NCBI GenBank assembly: GCA_000004695.1
Contig: CM000152.2
Coordinates: 416,001 to 480,000, forward strand
Origin: Dictyostelium discoideum
Lineage: Eukaryota
Reading direction: 5' to 3'
DNA: 64,000 nt
How positions within the stretch are numbered: the first letter of the stretch is position 1; every line of letters begins with the position of its first letter. Positions 1-54,479 of this stretch are shown one piece after another. Under the pieces are notes generated by a model that saw nothing but the letters and a program-made list of their open reading frames with translations, ran no database searches and was not told the origin of the DNA. The translations under genes and the position numbers were made by a program.

Positions 1-547
1 TATTAAAATAACCCACAATTTTATATTATAAAAAAAGACAATCTTTTATGGATATTATTTCATTTTTTATTTTTTTTTTGGATTGTGGTATGAAATTGTA
101 AATTTAAAAAAAAAAAACTCAAAAACATAGTGTTATTAAACATTTATAATAAAAAGCTTATATTAAAGATGAGAATAATTAACCAATTAGTAATTGTTAT
201 TGGTATGTTTTTATTTTTTTTGATTTCTTTTTTTAACAAATCATACGAAAACTTTGTAAAATAACTTATACTTTGTTGATTAAATATACAAATGGAAAGA
301 AAGTAAATATAATTTTCTGAAAATAAATGAAGTATTTTTTACAAAAAATTAAATTAATTAAAAAAAAAAAAAATTAAATAAAAATTAAAAAATCGATATT
401 GGTATAAATAAAAAAGAATTTAATTTGGTAAAACTATTTTAATGTTTATTATATAAAATTTATTTATTTTTTTATTTTATTTTATAGACATATAAATTGG
501 ATTTTTCTTAAATAAAAAAAAAAAATAAAATAAACCATTAAAAAAAA

Positions 548-3500
548 ATGAAAGTTTTTTTATTAATATTATTGGTTTGTTTTATTTCTATTAATGTTGA
601 TGCATTTCATAATTATAGAGCCAATTGTGATTACACCTCTTGTCCTAGAGAATTTAGTTGCCATGTAATCAATAGAAATATCACTGCTTGTTTACCAGAT
701 AATGATATTTGTAGAAATTTTCCATGTCCACAGGGTAGTCATTGTTTCAATGGTGAAAGAGGTCCTGGTTGTTTTGATGATATCCATTATCCAAATTTAT
801 GCTATGTAACCCATTGTTCATTGGATTATGATTGTAGAATGGTTAGAGGTGATCCAATATGTTTAAGATTTCAAAATGTTAATCCAACTAATACTCCAAC
901 CCCCACCCCAGTTCATTGTACCACTTGTGCTGAACTAGCTTCTACTTGTCACTCTGATGGTTTAGTTTGTAGAACTATTGTTAATCCCAAGTGCCGTGGT
1001 AATTCAATAAAAGCTCTCGCCAAAACTAAAGCATGTTGTCCATATATTGCATTTTGTGATTCAAATTCAACCTCACACACAACTGGGGTACAAACAACAA
1101 CAGGAAGAAGTACGACTGGTGTACAATCAACAACTGGTAGGAGTACAACTGGTAGAAGTACAACTGGTAGAGGTACAACTGGTACAAGTACAACTGGTAC
1201 AAGTACAACTGGTACAAGCACAACTGGTAGAAGCACAACTGGTACAAGTACAACTGGTACAAGTACAACTGGTAGAAGTACAACTGGTACAAGTACAACT
1301 GGTACAAGTACAACTGGTACAAGTACAACTGGTACAAGCACAACTGGTACAAGTACAACTGGTACAAGCACAACTGGTACAAGTACAACTGGTACAAGTA
1401 CAACTGGTACAAGTACAACTGGTACAAGCACAACTGGTACAAGCACAACTGGTACAAGCACAACTGGTACAAGTACAACTGGTAGAAGCACAACTGGTAG
1501 AAGTACAACTGGTAGAAGTACAACTGGTAGAAGTACAACTGGTAGAAGTACAACTGGTAGAAGTACAACTGGTAGAAGTACAACTGGTAGAAGTACAACT
1601 GGTTCCGCTTCAACCACAGGAAGAGGTACAACTGGTTCTGCTTCAACCACAGGAAGAGGTACAACTGGTTCTGCTTCAACCACAGGAAGAGGTACAACTG
1701 GTGCTGCTTCAACCACAGGAAGAAGTACAACTGGTAGAGGTACAACTGGTAGAAGTACAACTGGTAGAAGTACAACTGGTTCCGCTTCAACCACAGGAAG
1801 AGGTACAACTGGTTCCGCTTCAACCACAGGAAGAAGTACAACTGGTTCCGCTTCAACCACTGGAAGAAGTACAACTGGTTCTGCTTCAACCACAGGAAGA
1901 GGTACAACTGGTTCTGCTTCAACTACAGGAAGAGGTACAACTGGTTCTGCTTCAACCACAGGAAGAGGTACAACTGGTTCTGCTTCAACCACAGGAAGAG
2001 GTACAACTGGTTCTGCTTCAACCACAGGAAGAAGTACAACTGGTGCTGCTTCAACCACAGGAAGAAGTACAACTGGTAGAGGCACAACTGGGGTACAATC
2101 AACAACTGGTGCTGCTTCAACCATAGGAAGAAGTACAACTGGTTCTGCTTCAACCACAGGAAGAGGTACAACTGGTGCTGCTTCAACCACAGGAAGAAGT
2201 ACAACTGGTGCTGCTTCAACCACAGGAAGAAGTACAACTGGTAGAGGTACAACTGGTGCTACTACTGCTAATTCAATAGGTGGTTTGACAACTGCTGGCG
2301 TCACAACAGTTGCTGGAGTAACTACTGCTACTGCCTCAACCGTTGCTGGAGTAACTACTGCCTCAACCGTTGCTGGTGTAACTACTAATTCAATAGGTGG
2401 TGTAACCACAGGAAGAGGTACAACTGGTGCTGCTTCAACTACAGGAAGAAGTACAACTGGTAGAGGTACAACTGGTGCTACTACTGCTAATTCAATAGGT
2501 GGTTTAACAACTGCTGGCGTCACAACAGTTGCTGGAGTAACTACTGCTACTGCCTCAACCGTTGCTGGAGTAACTACTGGTAGAGGTACAACTGGTTCTG
2601 CTTCAACCACAGGAAGAGGTACAACTGGTGCTGCCTCAACCGTTGCAGGAGTAACTACTGCTAATTCAATAGGTGGTATAACCACTGCTACTGCCTCAAC
2701 TGTTGCTGGAGTAACTACTGCTAATTCAATAGGTGGTTTGACTACTGCTGGCGTCACAACCGTTGCTGGAGTAACTACTGCCTCAACCGTTGCTGGAGTA
2801 ACTACTGCCTCAACCGTTGCTGGTGTAACTACTAATTCAATAGGTGGTGTAACCACAGGAAGAGGTACAACTGGTGCTACTACTGCTAATTCAATAGGTG
2901 GTGTAACCACAGGTAGAGGTACAACTGGTGCTACTACTGCTAATTCAATAGGTGGTTTAACAACTGCTGGCGTCACAACAGTTGCTGGAGTAACTACTGC
3001 TACTGCCTCAACCGTTGCTGGAGTAACTACTGCTACTGCCTCAACAGTTGCTGGAGTAACTACTGCTAATTCAATAGGTGGTTTGACAACTGCTGGCGTC
3101 ACAACAGTTGCTGGTGTCACTACTGTCAATTCAATAGGTGGTGCAACCACTGCCAATTCAATAGATGGTGCAACCACTGCCACTGCCTCAACCGTTGCAG
3201 GAGTAACTACTGCTAATTCAATAGGTGGTATAACCACTGCTACTGCCTCAACTGTTGCTGGAGTAACTACTGCTAATTCAATAGGTGGTGTAACCACAGG
3301 AAGAGGTACAACTGGTGCTGCTTCAACTACAGGAAGAAGTACAACTGGTAGAGGTACAACTGGTGCTACTACTGCTAATTCAATAGGTGGTTTAACAACT
3401 GCTGGCGTCACAACAGTTGCTGGAGTAACTACTGCTACTGCCTCAACCGTTGCTGGAGTAACTACTGCTAATTCAATAGGTGGTTTGACAACTGCTGGCG

Positions 3501-6500
3501 TCACAACAGTTGCTGGTGTCACTACTGTCAATTCAATAGGTGGTGCAACCACTGCCAATTCAATAGATGGTGCAACCACTGCCACTGCCTCAACCGTTGC
3601 AGGAGTAACTACTGCTAATTCAATAGGTGGTATAACCACTGCTACTGCCTCAACTGTTGCTGGAGTAACTACTGTCAATTCAATAGGTGTAACAACTGCT
3701 AGTTCAATAGGTGGTTTAACAACTGCTGGCGTCACAACCGTTGCTGGTGCCACTACTGCCAATTCAATAGGTGGTTTAACTACTGCTGGCATTACAACAG
3801 TTGCTGGTGCCACTACTGTCAATTCAATAGGTGGTTTGACAACTGCTGGCATCACAACAGTTGCTGGTGTCACTACTGCCAATTCAATAGATGGTGCAAC
3901 CACTGCCACTGCCTCTGCCTCAACCGTTGCAGGAGTAACTACTGCTAATTCAATAGGTGGTATAACCACTGCTACTGCCTCATCTGTTGCTGGAGTAACT
4001 ACTGCTTCAGTTGGAGGTTTGACAACTGCAGTTGCCTCTACAGTAGCTGGAGTAACTACTGCTGCTTCAATAGGTGGCGTAACCACTGCTACTGCCTCAA
4101 CCGTTGCTGGAGTAACTACTGCCTCAACCGTTGCTGGTGTAACTACTAATTCAATAGGTGGTGTAACCACTGCTACTGCCTCAACTGTTGCAGGTGTAAC
4201 TACTGCTGCTTCAATAGGTGGTTTAACTACTGCTGGTTTAACAACAGTTGCTGGATTTACCACTGCTGCCTCTGTTGGAGGTTTAACTACTGCTGGTGCT
4301 ACAACAGTTGCTGGTTCAACAACTTCCCCAGCATCAGTAGGTGACTTAACTACTGCTGGAGCAACAACAGTTGCTGGGGTTACCACTGCTGCTTCTGTTG
4401 GAGGTTTAACTACTGCTGGTGCTACAACAGTTGGAGGTTTAACTAATGCTAATTCAATAGGTGGTGTAACCACTGCTACTGCCTCAACGGTTGCTGGTGT
4501 AACTACTAATTCAATAGGTGGTGTAACCACTGCTACTGCCTCAACTGTTGCAGGTGTAACTACTGCTGCTTCAATAGGTGGTTTAACTACTGCTGGTTTA
4601 ACAACAGTTGCTGGAGTAACTACTGCTTCAGTTGGAGGTTTGACAACTGCAACTGCCTCTACAGTAGCTGGAGTAACTACTGCTGCTTCAATAGGAGGTT
4701 TAACTACTGCCGGCATTACAACAGTTGCTGGTTCAACAACAACAGTTGCTGGAGTCACCACTGCTGCTTCTGTTGGAGGTTTAACTACTGCTGGTGCTAC
4801 AACAGTTGCTGGAGTTACTACTGCTGCTTCTATTGGAGGTTTAACTACTGCTGGTGCTACAACAGTTGCCGGAGTTACTACTGCTGCTTCTATTGGAGGT
4901 TTAACTACTGCCAGTTTAACAACAGTTGCTGGTTCAACAACTTCCTCTTCATCAGTTGGTGGTTTAACTACTGCTGGAGCAACAACAGTTGCTGGAGTAA
5001 CTACTGCTGCTTCTGTTGGTGGTTTAACTACTGCTGGTATTACAACAGTTGCTGGAGTTACTACTGCTGCTTCTGTTGGAGGTTTAACTACTGCCGGTTT
5101 AACAACAGTTGCTGGTTCAACAACTTCCTCTTCATCAGTTGGTGGTTTAACTACTGCTGGAGCAACAACAGTTGCTGGAGTTACTACTGCTGGAGCAACA
5201 ACAGTTGCTGGAGTTACTACTGCTGCTTCTGTTGGAGGTTTAACTACTGCCGGTATTACAACAGTTTCTGGAGTAACTACTGCCAATTCAATAGGTGGCG
5301 CGAACACCGCTACCGCCGGTATAACTACTGCTGGAGCAACAACAGTTGCTGGAGTTACTACTGCTTCTGTTGGTGGTTTAACTACTGCCGGTATTACAAC
5401 AGTTGCTGGAGTAACTACTGCTGCTTCTGTTGGTGGTTTAACTACTGGTATTACAACAGTTGCTGGAGTTACTACTGCTGCTTCTGTTGGAGGTTTAACT
5501 ACTGCCGGTTTAACAACAGTTGCTGGTTCGACAACTTCATCTTCATCAATTGGAAGTTTGACTACGGCTGGTTTAACAACAGTTGCTGGAGTTACTACCG
5601 CTGCTTCTGTTGGAGGTTTGACAACTGCCGGTGTAACAACAGTTGCTGGCTCAACAACTTCCCCAGCATCAGTAGGTGGTTTAACTACTGCTACTGCCTC
5701 AACGGTCGCTGGAGTTACTACTGCCGCTTCAATAGGAGGTTTAACTACAGCTGGTATAACAACAATTGCTGGTTCAACAACTTCTGCTTCATCAGTGGGT
5801 GGTTTAACTACTGCTGGTTTAACAACAGTTGCTGGAGTTACTACTTCTGCTTCTGTTGGAGGTTTTACAACTGCCGGTATAACAACAGTTGCTGGTTCAA
5901 CAACTTCCCGAGCATCAGTAGGTGGTTTAACTACTGCTGGTGCTACAACAGTTGCTGGAGTTACTACTGCTGCTTCTGTAGGTGGTTTAACTACTTCTTC
6001 TTTGACAACAGTAGCTGGTGTCACTACTGGTACTGCTTCTGTTGGTGGTTTAACGACTGCTGGTGTAACTACCACCGCTGCTTCTGTTGGTGGTTTAACA
6101 ACTGCAGGTATTTCAACAATATCTGGTGTTACTACTGCCACAGCCTCAACGGTGGCAGGTATGACTACTGCCGCTGCTACATCAGGTGGTGTTTCAACTG
6201 CTACCGTATCATCAGGTGCCACAACTACTCAGGCATCAACACTATTTGGAATAACAACTGCTGCTTCTGTAGGCGCTTTAACAACAGCAGGTATGACAAC
6301 AGTCGCTGGTTTTACTACTGCTGCTTTTGTAGGTGGTTTAACAACTGCTGGTTTAACAACTGCTGGTGTAACTACTACCGCTGCTTCTGTTGGTGGTTTA
6401 ACAACTGCTGGTGTAACAACTACTGCTGCTTCTGTTGGTGGTTTAACAACTGCTGGTGTGACTACTACCGCTGCTTCTGTTGGTGGCTTAACAACTGCTG

Positions 6501-6805
6501 GTGTAACTACTACCGCTACTTCATCAGGTAGTGTTTCAACTGCTACCGTATCATCAGGTGCCACAACTACTCATGCTTCAACACTATTTGGAATAACAAC
6601 TGCTGCTTCAATAGGTGCTTTAACAACTGCAGGTATGACAACAGTAGCTGGTGTTACTACTGCTGCTTCTGTAGGTGGTTTAACAACTGCTGGTCTATCA
6701 ACAGTATCTGGTGTAACTACTTCTGCTTCTGTGGGTTCTTTAACAACTGCTGGTTCAACAACTCGTTCTGGTTCAACAACTCGTTCTGGTATAATAGGTG
6801 GTTAA
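548..6805 (+). CDS. Secreted cysteine-rich / Thr-Gly-rich mucin-like repeat protein (2085 aa, single exon)
   Basis: Continuous ORF with an ATG in AT-rich context. N-terminal signal peptide MKVFLLILLVCFISINVDA. About 170-aa Cys-rich domain (many CxxC / C-P pairs). Then ~1900 aa of hierarchical tandem repeats: STTG[RT] 5-aa units, then GTTGSASTTGR 11-aa units, then degenerate TTAGVTTVAGVTTA(N/A)SIGG units. Codon usage (ACT/ACA, GGT, GCT) fits the + strand only. Predicted to be heavily O-glycosylated and extracellular. Confidence 0.8.
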   Translation: MKVFLLILLVCFISINVDAFHNYRANCDYTSCPREFSCHVINRNITACLPDNDICRNFPCPQGSHCFNGERGPGCFDDIHYPNLCYVTHCSLDYDCRMVRGDPICLRFQNVNPTNTPTPTPVHCTTCAELASTCHSDGLVCRTIVNPKCRGNSIKALAKTKACCPYIAFCDSNSTSHTTGVQTTTGRSTTGVQSTTGRSTTGRSTTGRGTTGTSTTGTSTTGTSTTGRSTTGTSTTGTSTTGRSTTGTSTTGTSTTGTSTTGTSTTGTSTTGTSTTGTSTTGTSTTGTSTTGTSTTGTSTTGTSTTGTSTTGRSTTGRSTTGRSTTGRSTTGRSTTGRSTTGRSTTGRSTTGSASTTGRGTTGSASTTGRGTTGSASTTGRGTTGAASTTGRSTTGRGTTGRSTTGRSTTGSASTTGRGTTGSASTTGRSTTGSASTTGRSTTGSASTTGRGTTGSASTTGRGTTGSASTTGRGTTGSASTTGRGTTGSASTTGRSTTGAASTTGRSTTGRGTTGVQSTTGAASTIGRSTTGSASTTGRGTTGAASTTGRSTTGAASTTGRSTTGRGTTGATTANSIGGLTTAGVTTVAGVTTATASTVAGVTTASTVAGVTTNSIGGVTTGRGTTGAASTTGRSTTGRGTTGATTANSIGGLTTAGVTTVAGVTTATASTVAGVTTGRGTTGSASTTGRGTTGAASTVAGVTTANSIGGITTATASTVAGVTTANSIGGLTTAGVTTVAGVTTASTVAGVTTASTVAGVTTNSIGGVTTGRGTTGATTANSIGGVTTGRGTTGATTANSIGGLTTAGVTTVAGVTTATASTVAGVTTATASTVAGVTTANSIGGLTTAGVTTVAGVTTVNSIGGATTANSIDGATTATASTVAGVTTANSIGGITTATASTVAGVTTANSIGGVTTGRGTTGAASTTGRSTTGRGTTGATTANSIGGLTTAGVTTVAGVTTATASTVAGVTTANSIGGLTTAGVTTVAGVTTVNSIGGATTANSIDGATTATASTVAGVTTANSIGGITTATASTVAGVTTVNSIGVTTASSIGGLTTAGVTTVAGATTANSIGGLTTAGITTVAGATTVNSIGGLTTAGITTVAGVTTANSIDGATTATASASTVAGVTTANSIGGITTATASSVAGVTTASVGGLTTAVASTVAGVTTAASIGGVTTATASTVAGVTTASTVAGVTTNSIGGVTTATASTVAGVTTAASIGGLTTAGLTTVAGFTTAASVGGLTTAGATTVAGSTTSPASVGDLTTAGATTVAGVTTAASVGGLTTAGATTVGGLTNANSIGGVTTATASTVAGVTTNSIGGVTTATASTVAGVTTAASIGGLTTAGLTTVAGVTTASVGGLTTATASTVAGVTTAASIGGLTTAGITTVAGSTTTVAGVTTAASVGGLTTAGATTVAGVTTAASIGGLTTAGATTVAGVTTAASIGGLTTASLTTVAGSTTSSSSVGGLTTAGATTVAGVTTAASVGGLTTAGITTVAGVTTAASVGGLTTAGLTTVAGSTTSSSSVGGLTTAGATTVAGVTTAGATTVAGVTTAASVGGLTTAGITTVSGVTTANSIGGANTATAGITTAGATTVAGVTTASVGGLTTAGITTVAGVTTAASVGGLTTGITTVAGVTTAASVGGLTTAGLTTVAGSTTSSSSIGSLTTAGLTTVAGVTTAASVGGLTTAGVTTVAGSTTSPASVGGLTTATASTVAGVTTAASIGGLTTAGITTIAGSTTSASSVGGLTTAGLTTVAGVTTSASVGGFTTAGITTVAGSTTSRASVGGLTTAGATTVAGVTTAASVGGLTTSSLTTVAGVTTGTASVGGLTTAGVTTTAASVGGLTTAGISTISGVTTATASTVAGMTTAAATSGGVSTATVSSGATTTQASTLFGITTAASVGALTTAGMTTVAGFTTAAFVGGLTTAGLTTAGVTTTAASVGGLTTAGVTTTAASVGGLTTAGVTTTAASVGGLTTAGVTTTATSSGSVSTATVSSGATTTHASTLFGITTAASIGALTTAGMTTVAGVTTAASVGGLTTAGLSTVSGVTTSASVGSLTTAGSTTRSGSTTRSGIIGG
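1087..6790 (+). repeat. Coding tandem-repeat array (15-nt, 33-nt and ~66-nt units) inside the mucin-like gene
   Basis: Visible periodicity agtacaactggta[gc]a (x~35), then ggttc[ct]gcttcaaccacaggaagaggtacaact units, then degenerate gttgctggagtaactactgct units. These generate the spurious long ORFs on both strands. Confidence 0.9.
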
Positions 6806-7273: not shown

Positions 7274-7630
7274 TCTGATTCATCACAAAAGAATAAACTT
7301 CTACCACGTGGTTATTGTTGATTTACTTGATGATTATTTCTTTGATTATCAAATACTAATTGACATTGTTATTTATATTGTAAATTATGATGATCTAAAC
7401 TATACCTTAGAGAAACGAATCGATTCGTAAATTAAATGTTTAATTTGGTAGAAAAAAAAAAAAAAAAAATGGAAATGGAAAATCAAAAAAAAATAAAAAT
7501 TGTGCAGATTGGAATGACCCAATTAAATAAAAAAAAGTAAAAAAAAATAAAAAAAATAAAAAAATTGAAACAGCACTTTTTTTTTAATTTCATTTATTTT
7601 ATTTTAAATTTTATTATTATTTAATAAACA

Positions 7631-7635
7631 AATAA

Positions 7636-7733
<98 letters not shown>
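7631..7733. repeat. (AAAT)n microsatellite, about 26 units, ending 3 nt before the ints11 ATG
   Basis: Direct reading: aaataaataaataaat... from 7631 to 7733 followed by aaaaATGaca. Confidence 0.95.
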
Positions 7734-7734
<1 letters not shown>

Positions 7735-7736
7735 AA

Positions 7737-10046
<2,310 letters not shown>

Positions 10047-10270
10047 AATTGAAATTTATAATAAAAAACTTTTTTTTTTTTTTTTTGTTTTCTCAATTTA
10101 AATTAACCCATAACAAAATCACAATCGGTTTTTTCAATTTTTGCGCTTAAAATTCAAATATTGGTGCACTTTTTTTTTTTTTTTTTTTTTTTTTCATTTA
10201 CACTCGTTTTATTATATTACACACAAATTCATAAAATAATAAAAAAAAAAAAAAAATAAAAATAATAAAA

Positions 10271-11288
10271 ATGACAACCCCAATTTTAAATTCTTCAGTA
10301 CCTGGTAATATACAAAAAAAATCATTAGAAGGGACACATATTGCAATTAGTGGTTTAGTAAGTAATGTACAAAAAAAAATAAAAAATAAAAAATAAAAAA
10401 TTATTACTATTATTAACTTTTTTATTTTTAAAATTTAGATTGGTGCAGGTAAAACTACATTAGCTGTAGCATTGGGAAAAGTTTTAAATTTACCAACATA
10501 TGTATGTTAAAATAATAATAGAAAAAAAAAATAAATAAAAAAAAAAAAGTTGTAAATGTATATTAACTTTTTTTTTTTTTATTTTTTTTTTTAGTTTGAA
10601 GAAGTTATTGACAATTTATATTTACAAGATTTTTATAAAGATCCTAAAAAATATGGTTTTCAACTTCAAATATATTTATTAAATTCAAGATTTCAACAAG
10701 TAAGTAATAAAAAAAATAAAAAATAAAAAAAAACAAAATAAAAAAAAAACACACACTCATATTTATTTTTTTATTTTTTATTTTTTATTTTTTTTAAAAA
10801 AATAGCAACAACAAATTATTTGGCAAGCTAGAGGTGGTGTGCAAGATAGAACCATTTATGAGGATTCAGTGTTTGCAAAGATGTTAAATGAGAGTGGACT
10901 TTTGGATGACAGAGATTATAATACCTATTGTAAATTATTTCAAAATTTAAGTAACTTTATGAGAAGACCAGATTTAATTATACATTTAGATGTTTCACCT
11001 GAAAAAAGTTTAGAAAGAATTAAATTAAGAAATAGAGATTGTGAAAAGGATGTTTCACTAGAGTACCTTCAAAATTTATATAACGCATATCACGAGTTCT
11101 TGCAAGACATCTCTCGTTACATTCCAGTAATTCGTATCAATTGGAGTGAATTTGTTGACCCTGAACAATTGGCTCAAATGATTAAAGCTGAATATGAATC
11201 AATGAGATTTATGAATCAAATTAATCCTCCAACTTTTGGTAATGGTCCAACCACTAATAAAATTATATCAACTCCAAAAGATTTATAA
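10271..11288 (+). CDS. Deoxynucleoside kinase (dCK/dGK/dAK family). Exons 10271..10357, 10439..10501, 10595..10699, 10806..11288.
   Basis: P-loop ISGL|IGAGKTTLA split by intron 1. ERS-like motif DRTIYEDSVFA. Lid/arginine-rich RIKLRNRDCEKDVSLEYL. Three short AT-rich introns with GTAAGT/GTATGT donors and AG acceptors keep the frame. Dictyostelium is known to have bacterial-like dAK/dGK and a dCK. Which one this is cannot be decided without a search. Confidence 0.8.
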
Positions 11289-14728: not shown

Positions 14729-15733
14729 TTAGTTAAATTTTATTTGGTTTTTATTTCCACCTAATAATCCACTTGGTAAACCAGTACCAAATGGAAAATT
14801 ACTACCGCCACTACCACTGGTAATACTTGATGGGAAACCAGTACTACTACTACTAGAGCTAGAGCTAGAGAATGAATTACCACTTGATGAGACAACAGTT
14901 GAGGATGGACCTGATGTTGTTATGGTTGTGGTTTGTTTTGATGTTGTAGTTGATGATGTGGTTGATGGAGTTGATGAGATTTGTAAATTCTTGTCACTAC
15001 CACTAGTGATACTAAATGGGAAACCAGTACTAATATCACTACTGCTACTACTAGAGCTAGAGCTAGAGAATGAATTACCACTTGATGAGACAACAGTTGA
15101 GGATGGACCTGATGTTGTTATGGTTGTTGTTTGTTTTGATGTTGTAGTTGATGATGATGATGATGTGGTTGATGGAGTTGATGAGATTTGTAAATTCTTA
15201 TCACTACCACTAGTGATACTAAATGGGAAACCAGTACTAATACCACCACTGCTACTACTACCAGAGGTAGAGAATGTATTACCACCTGATGAGACAACAG
15301 TTGAGGATGGACCTGATGTTGTTATGGTTGTTGTTTGTTTTGATGTTGTAGTTGATGATGATGAAAATTGTAAATTCATATCAATTCCATATTGACTACA
15401 ATAAACAACTGAACCTTCAGCATATTCACCACCTGGTACACATTCAAACCAAATGGTTTTCTTACTGAAAACCCCTTTACAATTATTATTGTTAAAAACT
15501 CTACTCTCATAATTGTTTGTAAACTTTTCAACTGTTTTAATTGATTTATAAGTTCCACAATTTTCAATCAATGTACATTCTCCAATTGTTGTTGTGATAT
15601 TGTTACTGCTACCAACTCCATTTGGACATTTTGTAAATGTAATATAAAATTCCAATTCATTTTGTTGTGAAAAAACAACAATAGTATAAATTAATACAAA
15701 AAGTGTAATTATTAATGATTTTAATGATGTCAT
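14729..15733 (-). CDS. Secreted Ser/Thr-rich protein with three ~60-aa tandem repeats (334 aa)
   Basis: ORF with signal peptide MTSLKSLIITLFVLIYTIVVFS. Cys-containing N-terminal domain. Three repeats of TTTSKQTTTITTSGPSSTVVSS..GFPFSITSGSDKNLQISSTPSTTSS. ATG preceded by pure A/T. Confidence 0.7.
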   Translation of the reverse strand: MTSLKSLIITLFVLIYTIVVFSQQNELEFYITFTKCPNGVGSSNNITTTIGECTLIENCGTYKSIKTVEKFTNNYESRVFNNNNCKGVFSKKTIWFECVPGGEYAEGSVVYCSQYGIDMNLQFSSSSTTTSKQTTTITTSGPSSTVVSSGGNTFSTSGSSSSGGISTGFPFSITSGSDKNLQISSTPSTTSSSSSTTTSKQTTTITTSGPSSTVVSSSGNSFSSSSSSSSSSDISTGFPFSITSGSDKNLQISSTPSTTSSTTTSKQTTTITTSGPSSTVVSSSGNSFSSSSSSSSSTGFPSSITSGSGGSNFPFGTGLPSGLLGGNKNQIKFN

Positions 15734-32707: not shown

Positions 32708-38535
<5,828 letters not shown>

Positions 38536-38542
38536 TTTGCTT

Positions 38543-38573
<31 letters not shown>

Positions 38574-38812
38574 TTTTATTTTATTTTTAAAATAATAATA
38601 GAATTAATACTTATTAAGAATTATATTTATTTTTATTATTAAAATTTTATTTTTACTATTTTGGAATTTTGGGGGTTTGATTGGAATATTTTATTTTTTT
38701 TTTTTTTTTTTTTAAAAAAAAATATTTAAGTGTATATTTAAATATATACAGGTGAATTTAGATTAACTACAAAAAGTTTAATTATTTATTTTATTATTAT
38801 TATTATTATTTT

Positions 38813-52042: not shown

Positions 52043-53343
52043 TGATTGTGATGAAATTTATAATAATATTATTAATAATAATAATAATAAAAATGGTGAA
52101 TATGAACATGAAACAAATTCAAATAAACCGGTGCTAACTCAACAATTAAAATTAAATATATCGAATGTTGATGTCTCCCAGTCTTCTTCAAATTCTTCAT
52201 CTTTGTCTTCCTCTCCAACTGTTCAAGTTGTGCCAACTCAGCTATTAGCAAATCAACTTTCACAACCATATACAATTAGTTCATCACAAGTTCCTAATAT
52301 TCAACCACAACTCCAACAACAACAGCCACAATCACAAAAACAAACTCAATCACTACCATCATCACCTATGTCATCACTAACTCCAAATATTCAGCAAGTC
52401 CAACAAAAAATACAACAATCAGTACAAACATCTCCTACAACTACACCAAGTAAATCAAATAAAAGTAAATGTCAACCAAAAAATGCACAACAAACAATTG
52501 GGCAAATACCATATATATATAATGGATCTTCTTCTTCTTCTTCTTCTTCTCAATATTCATCCTCTTCTTCAAATAATGAAGAAGAAGATATGGAAGAGAA
52601 ATTAAAAAATAGATCAATTGTTAAAGATAGAATTCAACAAAAGATGAGAAATCAATTAAATCTTTCATTTGCTGATACATCCAAAGAAACATTTGATCAA
52701 GTATTATCAATTCCCACTCCACCACCACCAACAACACCAAGATCAAAAAATACTCAACCAACCACACCACGTTCAACAAATTCATCAAGTCCTTTAACAT
52801 TACCAACTAAAACACCACCACAAACTCCAAGATCAACAAAAAATCAATCTTCACCACCACAAAGACAAAAAACACCTCCACCAATACATAATTTACAACT
52901 TTATTATCAACAACAACAAGAAAAACAACAACAAGAAAAACAACAACAACAATTAAAACAAGAACAATTAAAACAAGAGGAATTAAAACAAGAACAATTA
53001 AAACAAGAACAATTAAAATTAAAACAATTAAAACAAGAGGAATTAAAACAAGAACAATTAAAACAAGAACAAATAAAATTAGAACAATTAAAACAAGAAC
53101 AATTAAAACAAGAACAATTAAAACAAGAACAATTAAAAAAAGAACAATTAAAACAAGAACAAATAAAACAAGAACAATTAAAATTAGAACAAATAAAACA
53201 AGAACAATTAAAATTAGAACAATTAAAACAAGAGGAATTAAAACAAGAACAATTAAAACAGGAACAATTAAAACAACAACAAATAAAACAACAACAGGAG
53301 AAATCAATACAACAACAACAACTCCTTGAACAACAACTCCTTG

Positions 53344-53385
<42 letters not shown>

Positions 53386-53391
53386 TCCTTG

Positions 53392-53432
<41 letters not shown>

Positions 53433-53433
53433 T

Positions 53434-53474
<41 letters not shown>

Positions 53475-53753
53475 AAACAAAACCCAAATCGTTTTCAAAA
53501 TAATAACTATCAAGCTACAGAAGATACAACATCTCAACCATACTGGCCAACATCTTCAAATCAAAACTACCAATATTCTGAACAATATGATTCACAATAT
53601 TGCAATGATGTATGTTGTGAAGGATCACATACCAATAATAATAATAATAATCATGATAATAATTATAATGATAATAATTATAATGCCAATAATAATATTA
53701 ATAATTATAGCAATAATAATTATAATAATTATAGCAATAATAATAATAATAAT

Positions 53754-53792
<39 letters not shown>

Positions 53793-53924
53793 TATGGCAA
53801 TAATAATTATAGCAATAATAATAATAATAATAATAACTATAATAATAATAATTATAATGACTATAATAATAATAACTATAATAATAACTATAATAATAAT
53901 AATAATAATAATTATAATAATAAT

Positions 53925-53958
<34 letters not shown>

Positions 53959-54077
53959 GTAATTACAATAATAATTCAAGGTATCACCCATATTCAGAGC
54001 CACGTATATCTCAACACTCATCACCATCATATCGTCAACATCAACAACCATATATTTATCAACATTCTCGAAATTAA
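51909..54077 (+). CDS. Low-complexity protein (722 aa): poly-N, Ser/Thr/Pro-rich, (EQLKQ)n coiled-coil repeat, poly-Q, (NNY)n
   Basis: Single ORF. ~45 heptad-like LKQEQLKQEE repeats at 52900-53290 predict a long coiled coil. Confidence 0.6.
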
Positions 54078-54479
54078 TTTTTTAGATAAAATTAAAAAGA
54101 TGAAATAAAAATAAAAATTTTAAAAAAATAAATATATAGATAAATGAAATAACTAAAATTCAATTACTGGGAATGTGATAACTGGAAATTTTGACTGAAA
54201 ATCCACACAATTTATTTTCGTTAATTTGGAAAGAAAAAAAAATAAATAAATAAATAAATAAAATAAAAAATAAAGAATAAAATGTTAAATTCATTTTATT
54301 TGAATTTAAATTTAGTACAAATAATTTTTTTTTTTTAAATAATATATTTATTTATTTATATTTTTCTTTTAATTTTATTTTACAATTTTCTAAACATTTT
54401 TTTTTTTTTTTAATAATTCAAACACTAACACAATTATTATTATTATTTGAATTATTTTTATTAATTATATCATGATTTT

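Follow-up and report, generated by a model that had tools for sequence, protein, structure and literature searches.

A 6.3-kb Dictyostelium discoideum gene predicted to encode a secreted protein with a cysteine-rich head and a long, strain-variable Thr/Gly-rich repeat tail

Near the 5′ end of a 64,000-nt stretch of Dictyostelium discoideum DNA (GCA_000004695.1, contig CM000152.2, positions 416,001 to 480,000 of the forward strand; the whole stretch is called the window here, and positions are counted from its first letter) lies a 6.3-kb coding sequence at 548..6805, whose product of 2085 amino acids (aa) is composed of a predicted signal peptide, a cysteine-rich head, and a 1905-residue repeat tail (Table 1). 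The G+C fractions at the first, second, and third codon positions of the coding frame (GC1/GC2/GC3) are 0.45/0.82/0.10. This GC3-poor composition and the use of preferred Dictyostelium codons are the signature of Dictyostelium coding sequence. The flanks of the gene contain 10–30% G+C, and the neighbouring open reading frames (ORFs) carry poly-Asn and poly-Gln tracts. The stop codon of the gene is also that of a gene called in the D. discoideum assembly GCA_054883475.1 (locus tags ACTFIT_), to whose annotated proteins three ORFs of the window are identical. Single-exon models were found at the same locus elsewhere, of 6957 nt/2318 aa in the D. discoideum strain ACTFIR (GCA_054859385.1, locus tags ACTFIR_, where the locus was reached via the neighbouring ints11 protein) and of 975 nt/324 aa in D. 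dimigraforme. An exact database look-up of the 2085-aa product returned no record, and full-text searches yielded nothing on its guessed identifier (DDB_G0278189) or on its paralogue DDB_G0279541.

Table 1. Positions of the gene, its parts, and associated features in the window.
Feature	Position	Strand	Description
Motif GTGGTATGAAAT, possible regulatory element	85..96	+	Invariant in the window, ACTFIR, and D. dimigraforme
TATA-like element GGTATAAAT	401..409	+	About 140 nt 5′ of the ATG; conserved in 3 of 3 upstream regions
Complete coding sequence	548..6805	+	Single exon; ATG start; 2085 codons plus TAA; 0 internal stops (ORF list)
Signal peptide, residues 1–19, MKVFLLILLVCFISINVDA	548..604	+	Predicted cut between MKVFLLILLVCFISINVDA and FH
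Three tandem 4-Cys modules, C27–C48, C55–C75, C85–C105	626..862	+	Two-disulfide spacing of the C4C/CREMP (cysteine-rich eggshell membrane protein) type
Pro/Thr linker NVNPTNTPTPTPV, residues 110–122	875..913	+	Read from sequence
8-Cys domain ending the head	917..1057	+	C124, 127, 134, 141, 149, 163, 164, 170
Repeat zone 1, 5-aa STTG[R/T]	1079..1734	+	15-nt period; 38 STTGR, 17 STTGT; most homogeneous part
Repeat zone 2, 11-aa GRGTTG[S/A]ASTT	1589..2257	+	33-nt period (Tandem Repeats Finder)
Repeat zones 3–4, ~20–21-aa units of xGxTT, VAGxTT, and A[N/A]S[I/V]GGxTT sub-units	2304..6069	+	Tandem Repeats Finder and motif positions
Repeat zone 5 and C-terminus	5945..6790	+	342-nt repeat with ATTT[Q/H]ASTLFGITT landmarks, then 2 x STTRSG and terminal IIGG
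Antisense open frame, 1757 aa	949..6222	-	GTG start; by-product, not a gene
+1-register open frame, 359 aa	1047..2126	+	TTG start; over zones 1–2; by-product

The signal-peptide region contains the top Kyte–Doolittle window of the full protein (2.26), with V at -3 and A at -1 of the predicted cut, and a comparable leader is present in 9 of 9 family members. No other strongly hydrophobic segment was detected by a hydropathy scan across the whole protein, nor was a C-terminal membrane or glycosylphosphatidylinositol (GPI) anchor signal; the last 19 residues have a mean hydropathy of -0.36 and end in STTRSGIIGG. The gene had been described from its sequence alone as single-exon and secreted. The former agrees with the uninterrupted frame in the window and with the models in ACTFIR and D. 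dimigraforme, and the latter with the presence of one hydrophobic signal, at the N terminus, in a protein that has neither a further hydrophobic segment nor an anchor signal at its C terminus.

Upstream of the gene, three regions were compared. The surroundings of GTGGTATGAAAT are otherwise AT-rich and poorly alignable, and GGTATAAAT is a putative core promoter element. We take both to resemble the G/GT-rich developmental promoter boxes of Dictyostelium. A second GGGTGTGGTAT copy is found upstream of the D. dimigraforme gene, where the motifs lie around 9560–9580 and 9760–9775 of its stretch. A scan for bacterial-type promoters and terminators, which is irrelevant to a eukaryote, gave no signal above shuffles.

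The first 185 residues contain 21 cysteines, 1 in the signal peptide and 20 in the mature head (residues 20–175). Twelve of the latter form the three tandem modules, C27-32-38-48, C55-60-66-75, and C85-90-96-105, with the spacings Cx4Cx5Cx9C, Cx4Cx5Cx8C, and Cx4Cx5Cx8C, respectively, and eight form the domain that ends the head, with gaps of 2, 6, 6, 7, 13, 0, and 5 residues between them. All 20 are invariant in an alignment of the nine family sequences. The linker between modules and 8-Cys domain varies in length, being 12 nt longer in ACTFIR and longer in D. dimigraforme. A profile of the head family matched PDB entry 9pgb_A, a four-module CREMP, with E=8.7e-12 and the cysteines in register, and the window head alone matched the same entry with E=0.0023 in two stretches, again with cysteines aligned. 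By spacing and profile similarity, the head modules are assigned to the C4C/CREMP type. The CREMP module, often annotated as "follistatin-like," is a Cx4Cx5Cx8C β-hairpin with C1–C3 and C2–C4 disulfides and was first recognised through its similarity to the Dictyostelium spore-coat protein SP75 (PMC3068167; PMC12723725). In slime moulds, a Cx4Cx5Cx6-10C motif occurs alongside mucin-like repeats and basic proline repeats in the spore-coat proteins, which are tied into the cellulose layer via disulfides (PMC3068167; PMC12723725). No Pfam or PDB match was obtained for the 8-Cys domain. Neither VWD, C8, TIL, nor cystine-knot domains were recognised by Pfam, with a borderline TILa match only in a distant family member (P0005). 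AlphaFold2 (AF2), run on the family alignment, placed two strands, forming a β-hairpin, in each module (36–40/46–50, 65–69/72–76, and 94–99/102–107) at low confidence, with a mean predicted local distance difference test score (pLDDT) of 54.5, which is too low to support a fold search.

To find relatives, the head was searched with exhaustive HMMER against cluster representatives, and four proteins matched. The best match was a hypothetical protein of the sister species D. dimigraforme (P0003), with 59% identity in HMMER and 72.5% over 149 aligned codons. This protein is the positional orthologue, because the downstream gene order is exactly that of the window; in the window, ACTFIR, and D. 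dimigraforme alike, the gene is followed by ints11, a dNK-family kinase, a gene of ~860 aa, and a small S/T-rich gene of opposite orientation. The 324-aa orthologue has two extra N-terminal C4C modules and a basic His/Pro repeat (HPHPRPP) in an additional N-terminal part (residues 1–93, 10001–10282 of its stretch), followed by the same head and a ~90-aa Thr-rich tail with STTG motifs, which closes at a clean stop with AT-rich non-coding DNA beyond. The second match was the D. discoideum paralogue DDB_G0279541 (UniRef Q54WM8, "Follistatin-like domain-containing protein"), of 218–237 aa among strains. Because both the orthologue and this paralogue keep two more N-terminal C4C modules, a deletion of ~70 residues from the head seems to have accompanied tail expansion in the D. 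discoideum gene. A word-indexed homology search returned no match for the head and only one protein (P0002) for the full product; its Gly/Thr/Ala-rich repeats are of like composition, but it is not homologous to the head. No relatives of the head turned up in a metagenome scan either. The head family appears to be restricted to close relatives of D. discoideum.

The tail contains no cysteine and is composed largely of Thr (32.9%), Gly (19.0%), Ala (15.7%), Ser (11.6%), and Val (9.4%), with Gly, Ala, and Val together making up 44%. Its charged residues are 49 Arg, all in the first third, and 4 Asp, with no Lys or Glu, and ten codons account for 79% of its length. Tandem repeats were called with Tandem Repeats Finder (TRF). 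A 15-nt period encoding STTG[T/R] was found at 1130–1603 (31.6 copies, 95% matches), and a 33-nt period encoding GRGTTGSASTT at 1589–1735 (4.5 copies at 96%) and 1766–2242 (14.5 copies at 89%). These are followed by a 60-nt period (20 aa) over 2632–6069, on which higher-order periods of 123 and 183 nt are superimposed, and by a 342-nt higher-order repeat at 5945–6763 (2.4 copies, 83%). Within zones 3–4, units of the ANSIGG type precede those of the AASVGG type, with blocks of zone-2 units interspersed, and the region of zone 5 and the C-terminus is identical in the ACTFIT assembly. When the tail was cut after each TT, 273 short units of 68 kinds were obtained (e.g. VAGVTT, GRSTT, GRGTT, GTSTT, ATASTVAGVTT, and AASVGGLTT). 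The longer units are concatenations of 5–9-aa sub-units, GRGTT+GSASTT giving the 11-aa repeat and AGVTT+VAGVTT+AASVGGLTT the ~20-aa repeat. For this reason, "three nested generations," as the repeats were described in the sequence-only reading, is a fair account that the TRF periods likewise bear out; its estimate of ~22 aa for the large unit needs correction to the measured 20–21 aa. The tail repeats are real and HIERARCHICAL.

The array also holds long open frames on the other strand and in another register (Table 1). Both lie where the sequence-only reading had placed them, and its view of them as artefacts is upheld by a codon-shuffle control. When the order of the sense codons was shuffled 200 times, antisense open runs had a mean of 1124 codons (range 500–1904), the observed run being 1713, and one antisense frame has just 2 stops in 1904 codons. 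The frame of the 359-aa ORF has 44 stops across the whole tail, versus 0 in the coding frame. The antisense ORF tracks tail length, since its equivalent measures 1828 aa in ACTFIR against only 115 aa in D. dimigraforme. As the codon composition (ACT/GGT/ACA/GCT...) alone yields such ORFs, they do not represent a second gene, and an antisense gene at 949..6222 is rejected in view of the shuffle control and the frame composition. Elsewhere in the window, very long CAA/CAG (poly-Gln) and AAT (poly-Asn) coding tracts at 36000–38600 (minus strand) and 52800–54100, with GC skews of +0.62 and -0.47, carry many overlapping other-frame ORFs that are spurious in the same way.

Repeat content was compared between the alleles of the window and ACTFIR at the protein level, from ORF translation. 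The window allele encodes 2085 aa and the one-exon ACTFIR allele 2318 aa, and the gene model in ACTFIT has 2244 aa. From window to ACTFIR, the counts of individual unit types shift from 38 to 11 for STTGR, from 21 to 0 for GRGTTG, and from 16 to 36 for ANSIGG, with the order of the zones (5-aa, 11-aa, ANSIGG, AASVGG, STLFGITT, and TTRSG) the same in both. Length polymorphism between strains, which had been anticipated from the homogenisation of the units, is thus directly seen. All length changes are in frame, including that to the 324 aa of D. dimigraforme, where the tail measures ~90 residues compared with 1,900–2,130 in D. discoideum, a difference of ~20-fold. The tail is a fast-changing coding minisatellite, with more than 230 residues separating conspecific alleles.

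The head is constrained between species. Comparison of D. discoideum with D. dimigraforme gave a head dN/dS of 0.25 (dS 0.72, 149 codons), compared with 0.07 for ints11, the nonsynonymous rate of the head being ~5x that of this neighbour; on these values the head is judged to be under purifying selection between species. The heads of the two D. discoideum alleles differ by 10 nonsynonymous and 3 synonymous changes and the 12-nt linker insertion, with pN/pS ~0.9. Positive selection in the head was not detected, a Fisher test of the McDonald–Kreitman (MK) type being non-significant (p=0.23). Two of the cysteines otherwise invariant in the family, C149 and C163 (window 917–1057), are replaced by F and Y in the ACTFIR allele (2018–2572 of its stretch). 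Their paired loss is as expected if both form one disulfide, and suggests that a single C149–C163 bond was lost as a pair.

We consider 548..6805 to be a functional and intact gene for a secreted, modular extracellular glycoprotein, with a probability of about 0.7, and propose a role for it in the matrix or coat. That the gene is real follows from its 2085 open codons, a GC3 of 0.10, the use of preferred codons, the in-frame nature of all allele length changes, and a head dN/dS of 0.25. The product is probably a matrix or coat glycoprotein that carries O-linked glycans and whose repeat tail is expanding rapidly. The tail, a long domain of tandem repeats in a protein predicted to be secreted, has 44.6% Ser+Thr over its 1905 residues, above the 40% that marks a mucin-like domain, and dense O-glycosylation would be expected by default at such a content in a secreted protein. 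Dictyostelium mucin-type domains carry O-α-GlcNAc (PMC8724618). The protein had already been put forward as a candidate component of the extracellular matrix or spore coat, and this candidacy is strengthened by a head that consists of C4C/CREMP modules.

In the mechanism proposed, the head would fold in the secretory pathway into disulfide-locked β-hairpin modules and, as in spore-coat proteins with the same motif, would anchor the protein in a matrix of cellulose and protein by binding or cross-linking. Dense O-glycosylation of the tail would be the work of the Golgi polypeptide α-GlcNAc-transferase system that acts on Dictyostelium mucin-type domains, and the glycosylated tail may extend into a long hydrated brush. 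In the slime sheath, the spore coat, or the matrix between spores, such a brush would serve to space, to lubricate, or as a barrier. Changes in copy number would arise from replication slippage and unequal recombination among near-identical units, with selection demanding only an open frame.

Several observations weigh against this interpretation. The first concerns the description of the tail as mucin-like, which holds for its Ser/Thr content but not if mucin domains are defined classically, by Pro, Thr, and Ser, because the tail is almost without proline (2 of 1905 residues) and is instead rich in Gly, Ala, and Val. The known Dictyostelium glycoproteins have mucin repeats that contain proline, and in this the tail is unlike them. 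AF2 gave the tail neither a confident fold nor clear disorder (pLDDT 54). Pfam recognised no domain in the head or in the full protein at E<=1, and this includes the spore-coat N-terminal domain. The within-species changes in the head, mostly nonsynonymous and including the loss of two invariant cysteines, could mean relaxed constraint. Finally, the gene model in GCA_054883475.1, with the same stop codon, has 2244 aa, which is 159 aa (477 nt) more than the 2085 aa of the window.

The last of these points raises the alternative that has to be taken most seriously, although it is still unlikely: that the gene is real but that its repeat array in the window is mis-assembled, having collapsed, so that neither its length nor its internal order is that of the strain. 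GCA_054883475.1 and the window share 99.8% identity over window positions 4707–25749 (21 kb). The final 2.1 kb of the gene fall in this range and are the same in both, and over the entire 21 kb the two differ only by two substitutions (22710 and 23312) and three homopolymer-length indels (11705, 15914, and 23531; T22, A10, and T6). This fits two assemblies of the same or a sister lab lineage, one of them with homopolymer compression, and it is in such a close match that the longer product is called. Collapse is made easier to envisage by internal blocks of the tail that are 96–98% identical and reach 150–285 nt. Even so, the longest near-identical blocks are shorter than 300 nt and could be spanned by ordinary reads, and the independent ACTFIR allele has its zones in the same order. 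The extra 159 aa may reflect a window array collapsed by 477 nt, but may also stem from a very recent and genuine change in copy number or from differing gene models. Whichever applies, the discrepancy bears on the repeat count and not on the existence or nature of the gene.

The near absence of proline, the 44% Gly+Ala+Val, and the regular occurrence of TT every 5–9 residues would also suit a tail that is a folded or self-assembling β-rich fibrous domain (a β-solenoid, or silk- or amyloid-like), with the protein serving as a structural fibre. AF2 on 240 tail residues produced periodic short β-strands, about every 10 residues, with a predicted template-modelling score (pTM) of 0.44, but at low confidence, as the mean pLDDT of just 54 indicates. 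A Foldseek search of the PDB with this segment returned nothing significant; its top matches were left-handed β-helix enzymes, but with E>=0.015 (0.015 for the best) and template-modelling (TM) scores below 0.2. The one weak full-length match, P0002, has Gly/Thr/Ala-rich repeats of similar make-up, a resemblance of composition only. Unit lengths are irregular (5, 6, 9, and 11 aa) and change freely between alleles, which is hard to fit to a register-dependent solenoid, and the heavy O-glycosylation expected at 45% Ser/Thr (PMC8724618) would disfavour tight β packing. On these models, a folded β-rich tail is regarded as a minority possibility, about half as probable as a collapsed array.

More speculative, and slightly less probable again, is the idea that the gene encodes a hypervariable extracellular "identity or interface" molecule and not passive filler. 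The ~20-fold tail expansion in the D. discoideum lineage and the divergence in length and unit type between co-occurring strains would then be driven by external interaction, for which strain-specific adhesion or sorting, and the binding or evasion of bacteria, nematodes, or lectins, can be imagined as drivers, and the proline-free tail might be an undescribed glycosylated β-rich polymer.

A decaying or functionless locus, in which a small secreted protein of the ancestor gained a giant tail with no selected role by the neutral expansion of a coding minisatellite, is improbable. The orthologue is indeed only 324 aa long, the mix of unit types differs between alleles, two N-terminal modules kept in orthologue and paralogue have been lost from the D. 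discoideum head, and within the species the head shows the pN/pS of ~0.9 and the two missing cysteines already described. However, frames of 2085 and 2318 codons have stayed open through many indels, all of them multiples of 3, codon bias is strong, the between-species dN/dS is 0.25, and the upstream motifs are conserved, while the MK-type contrast is not significant. Lastly, the 49 Arg at strictly periodic positions in zones 1–2 (38 x STTGR and 21 x GRGTTG), in a tail that has neither Lys nor Glu and no other charges at regular positions, could be read as marking its first third as a polyprotein precursor cut after Arg into small glycopeptides, but this is highly improbable given that ACTFIR retains 11 STTGR and 0 GRGTTG, that D. 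dimigraforme has no Arg-containing units, and that dibasic processing sites are absent.

Other features of the window were recorded alongside the gene. A second secreted Ser/Thr-rich repeat protein is encoded at 14729–15733 on the minus strand; in its 334 aa, a signal peptide and a small N-domain with Cys precede three S/T-rich repeats of ~75 aa each. Its sequence is that of KAM9948769.1 (hypothetical, D. discoideum). At this position, ACTFIR has a gene for 385 aa and D. dimigraforme one for 208 aa, so the gene looks length-variable too. Downstream of the repeat gene, a perfect (AATA)n microsatellite of 28.5 copies (7623–7735) lies directly 5′ of the start codon of ints11 at 7738. The ints11 gene (7738–10046, plus strand) encodes a 744-aa integrator subunit 11/CPSF73-like metallo-β-lactamase and has one intron of 75 nt (about 7941–8015), which splits the HxHxDH motif. 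The first ~285 residues encoded by its second exon (from residue ~82) are 100% identical to those of D. dimigraforme, and the lengths of the poly-Asn tracts differ.

If it is expressed, the protein would be by far the largest of the class that combines Cys motifs with Ser/Thr repeats and builds the Dictyostelium spore coat, and a candidate for a bulk component of the sheath, the coat, or the matrix between spores. Proteomics would tend to miss it, because a heavily glycosylated tail with no Lys and few Arg yields few peptides. The locus is also a clean natural case of very fast coding-minisatellite evolution and carries a practical warning, in that assemblies and gene finders disagree on its product (2085, 2244, and 2318 aa) and the array breeds long spurious antisense ORFs.

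Among the known systems that come closest to the protein are its own paralogue and the spore-coat proteins of Dictyostelium. The paralogue DDB_G0279541 shares the head architecture, all 20 cysteines, the signal peptide, the PT linker, and a short, strain-variable Thr-rich C-terminus; it differs in being 33–35% identical, in having two more N-terminal C4C modules, and in a tail of 10–25 residues in place of the giant array. To our knowledge, the tail is ~10x longer than any mucin region in Dictyostelium spore-coat proteins. These proteins (SP96/CotA, SP87, SP75/DP87, SP70/CotB, SP60/CotC, and SP85/PsB), compared by description, are likewise secreted and modular, with C4C motifs and Ser/Thr repeats (PMC3068167). 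They also have basic proline repeats (PMC3068167), for which the counterpart here is the basic His/Pro repeat seen only in the D. dimigraforme orthologue, and they differ in their Pfam spore-coat N-terminal domain and in the proline that the present tail lacks. GPI-anchored surface glycoproteins of the PsA/gp80 type differ in the C-terminal hydrophobic GPI signal, which is missing here.

Outside Dictyostelium, avian CREMP has the same two-disulfide Cx4Cx5Cx8C module and is also an extracellular structural protein of tandem repeats. It differs in that ~81 modules follow one another, with VWD/C8 domains in addition, and in lacking a Ser/Thr tail (PMC12723725), whereas here there are three modules and it is the non-Cys tail that has expanded. 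Animal secreted mucins (MUC genes) resemble the protein in their signal peptide, Cys-rich non-repeat domains on either side of a single huge Ser/Thr exon with a variable number of tandem repeats, and length polymorphism between individuals (PMC13345508). No homology is implied; VWD, C8, TIL, CK, and SEA domains are lacking from the D. discoideum product and its repeats are proline-free, and protist O-glycosylation begins with GlcNAc and not GalNAc (PMC8724618). Toxoplasma CST1 and yeast adhesins of the Flo11/Muc1 type also place a copy-variable Ser/Thr array in a secreted wall or matrix for rigidity, extension, or display (PMC3873430; PMC7199969), but their heads are unrelated and the present product has no GPI signal, making this an analogy only. 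By its architecture, the protein belongs to a known kind, the modular matrix and coat glycoproteins of Dictyostelium, of which it is a new, so far uncharacterised, and unusually large example, and not to a new kind of system.

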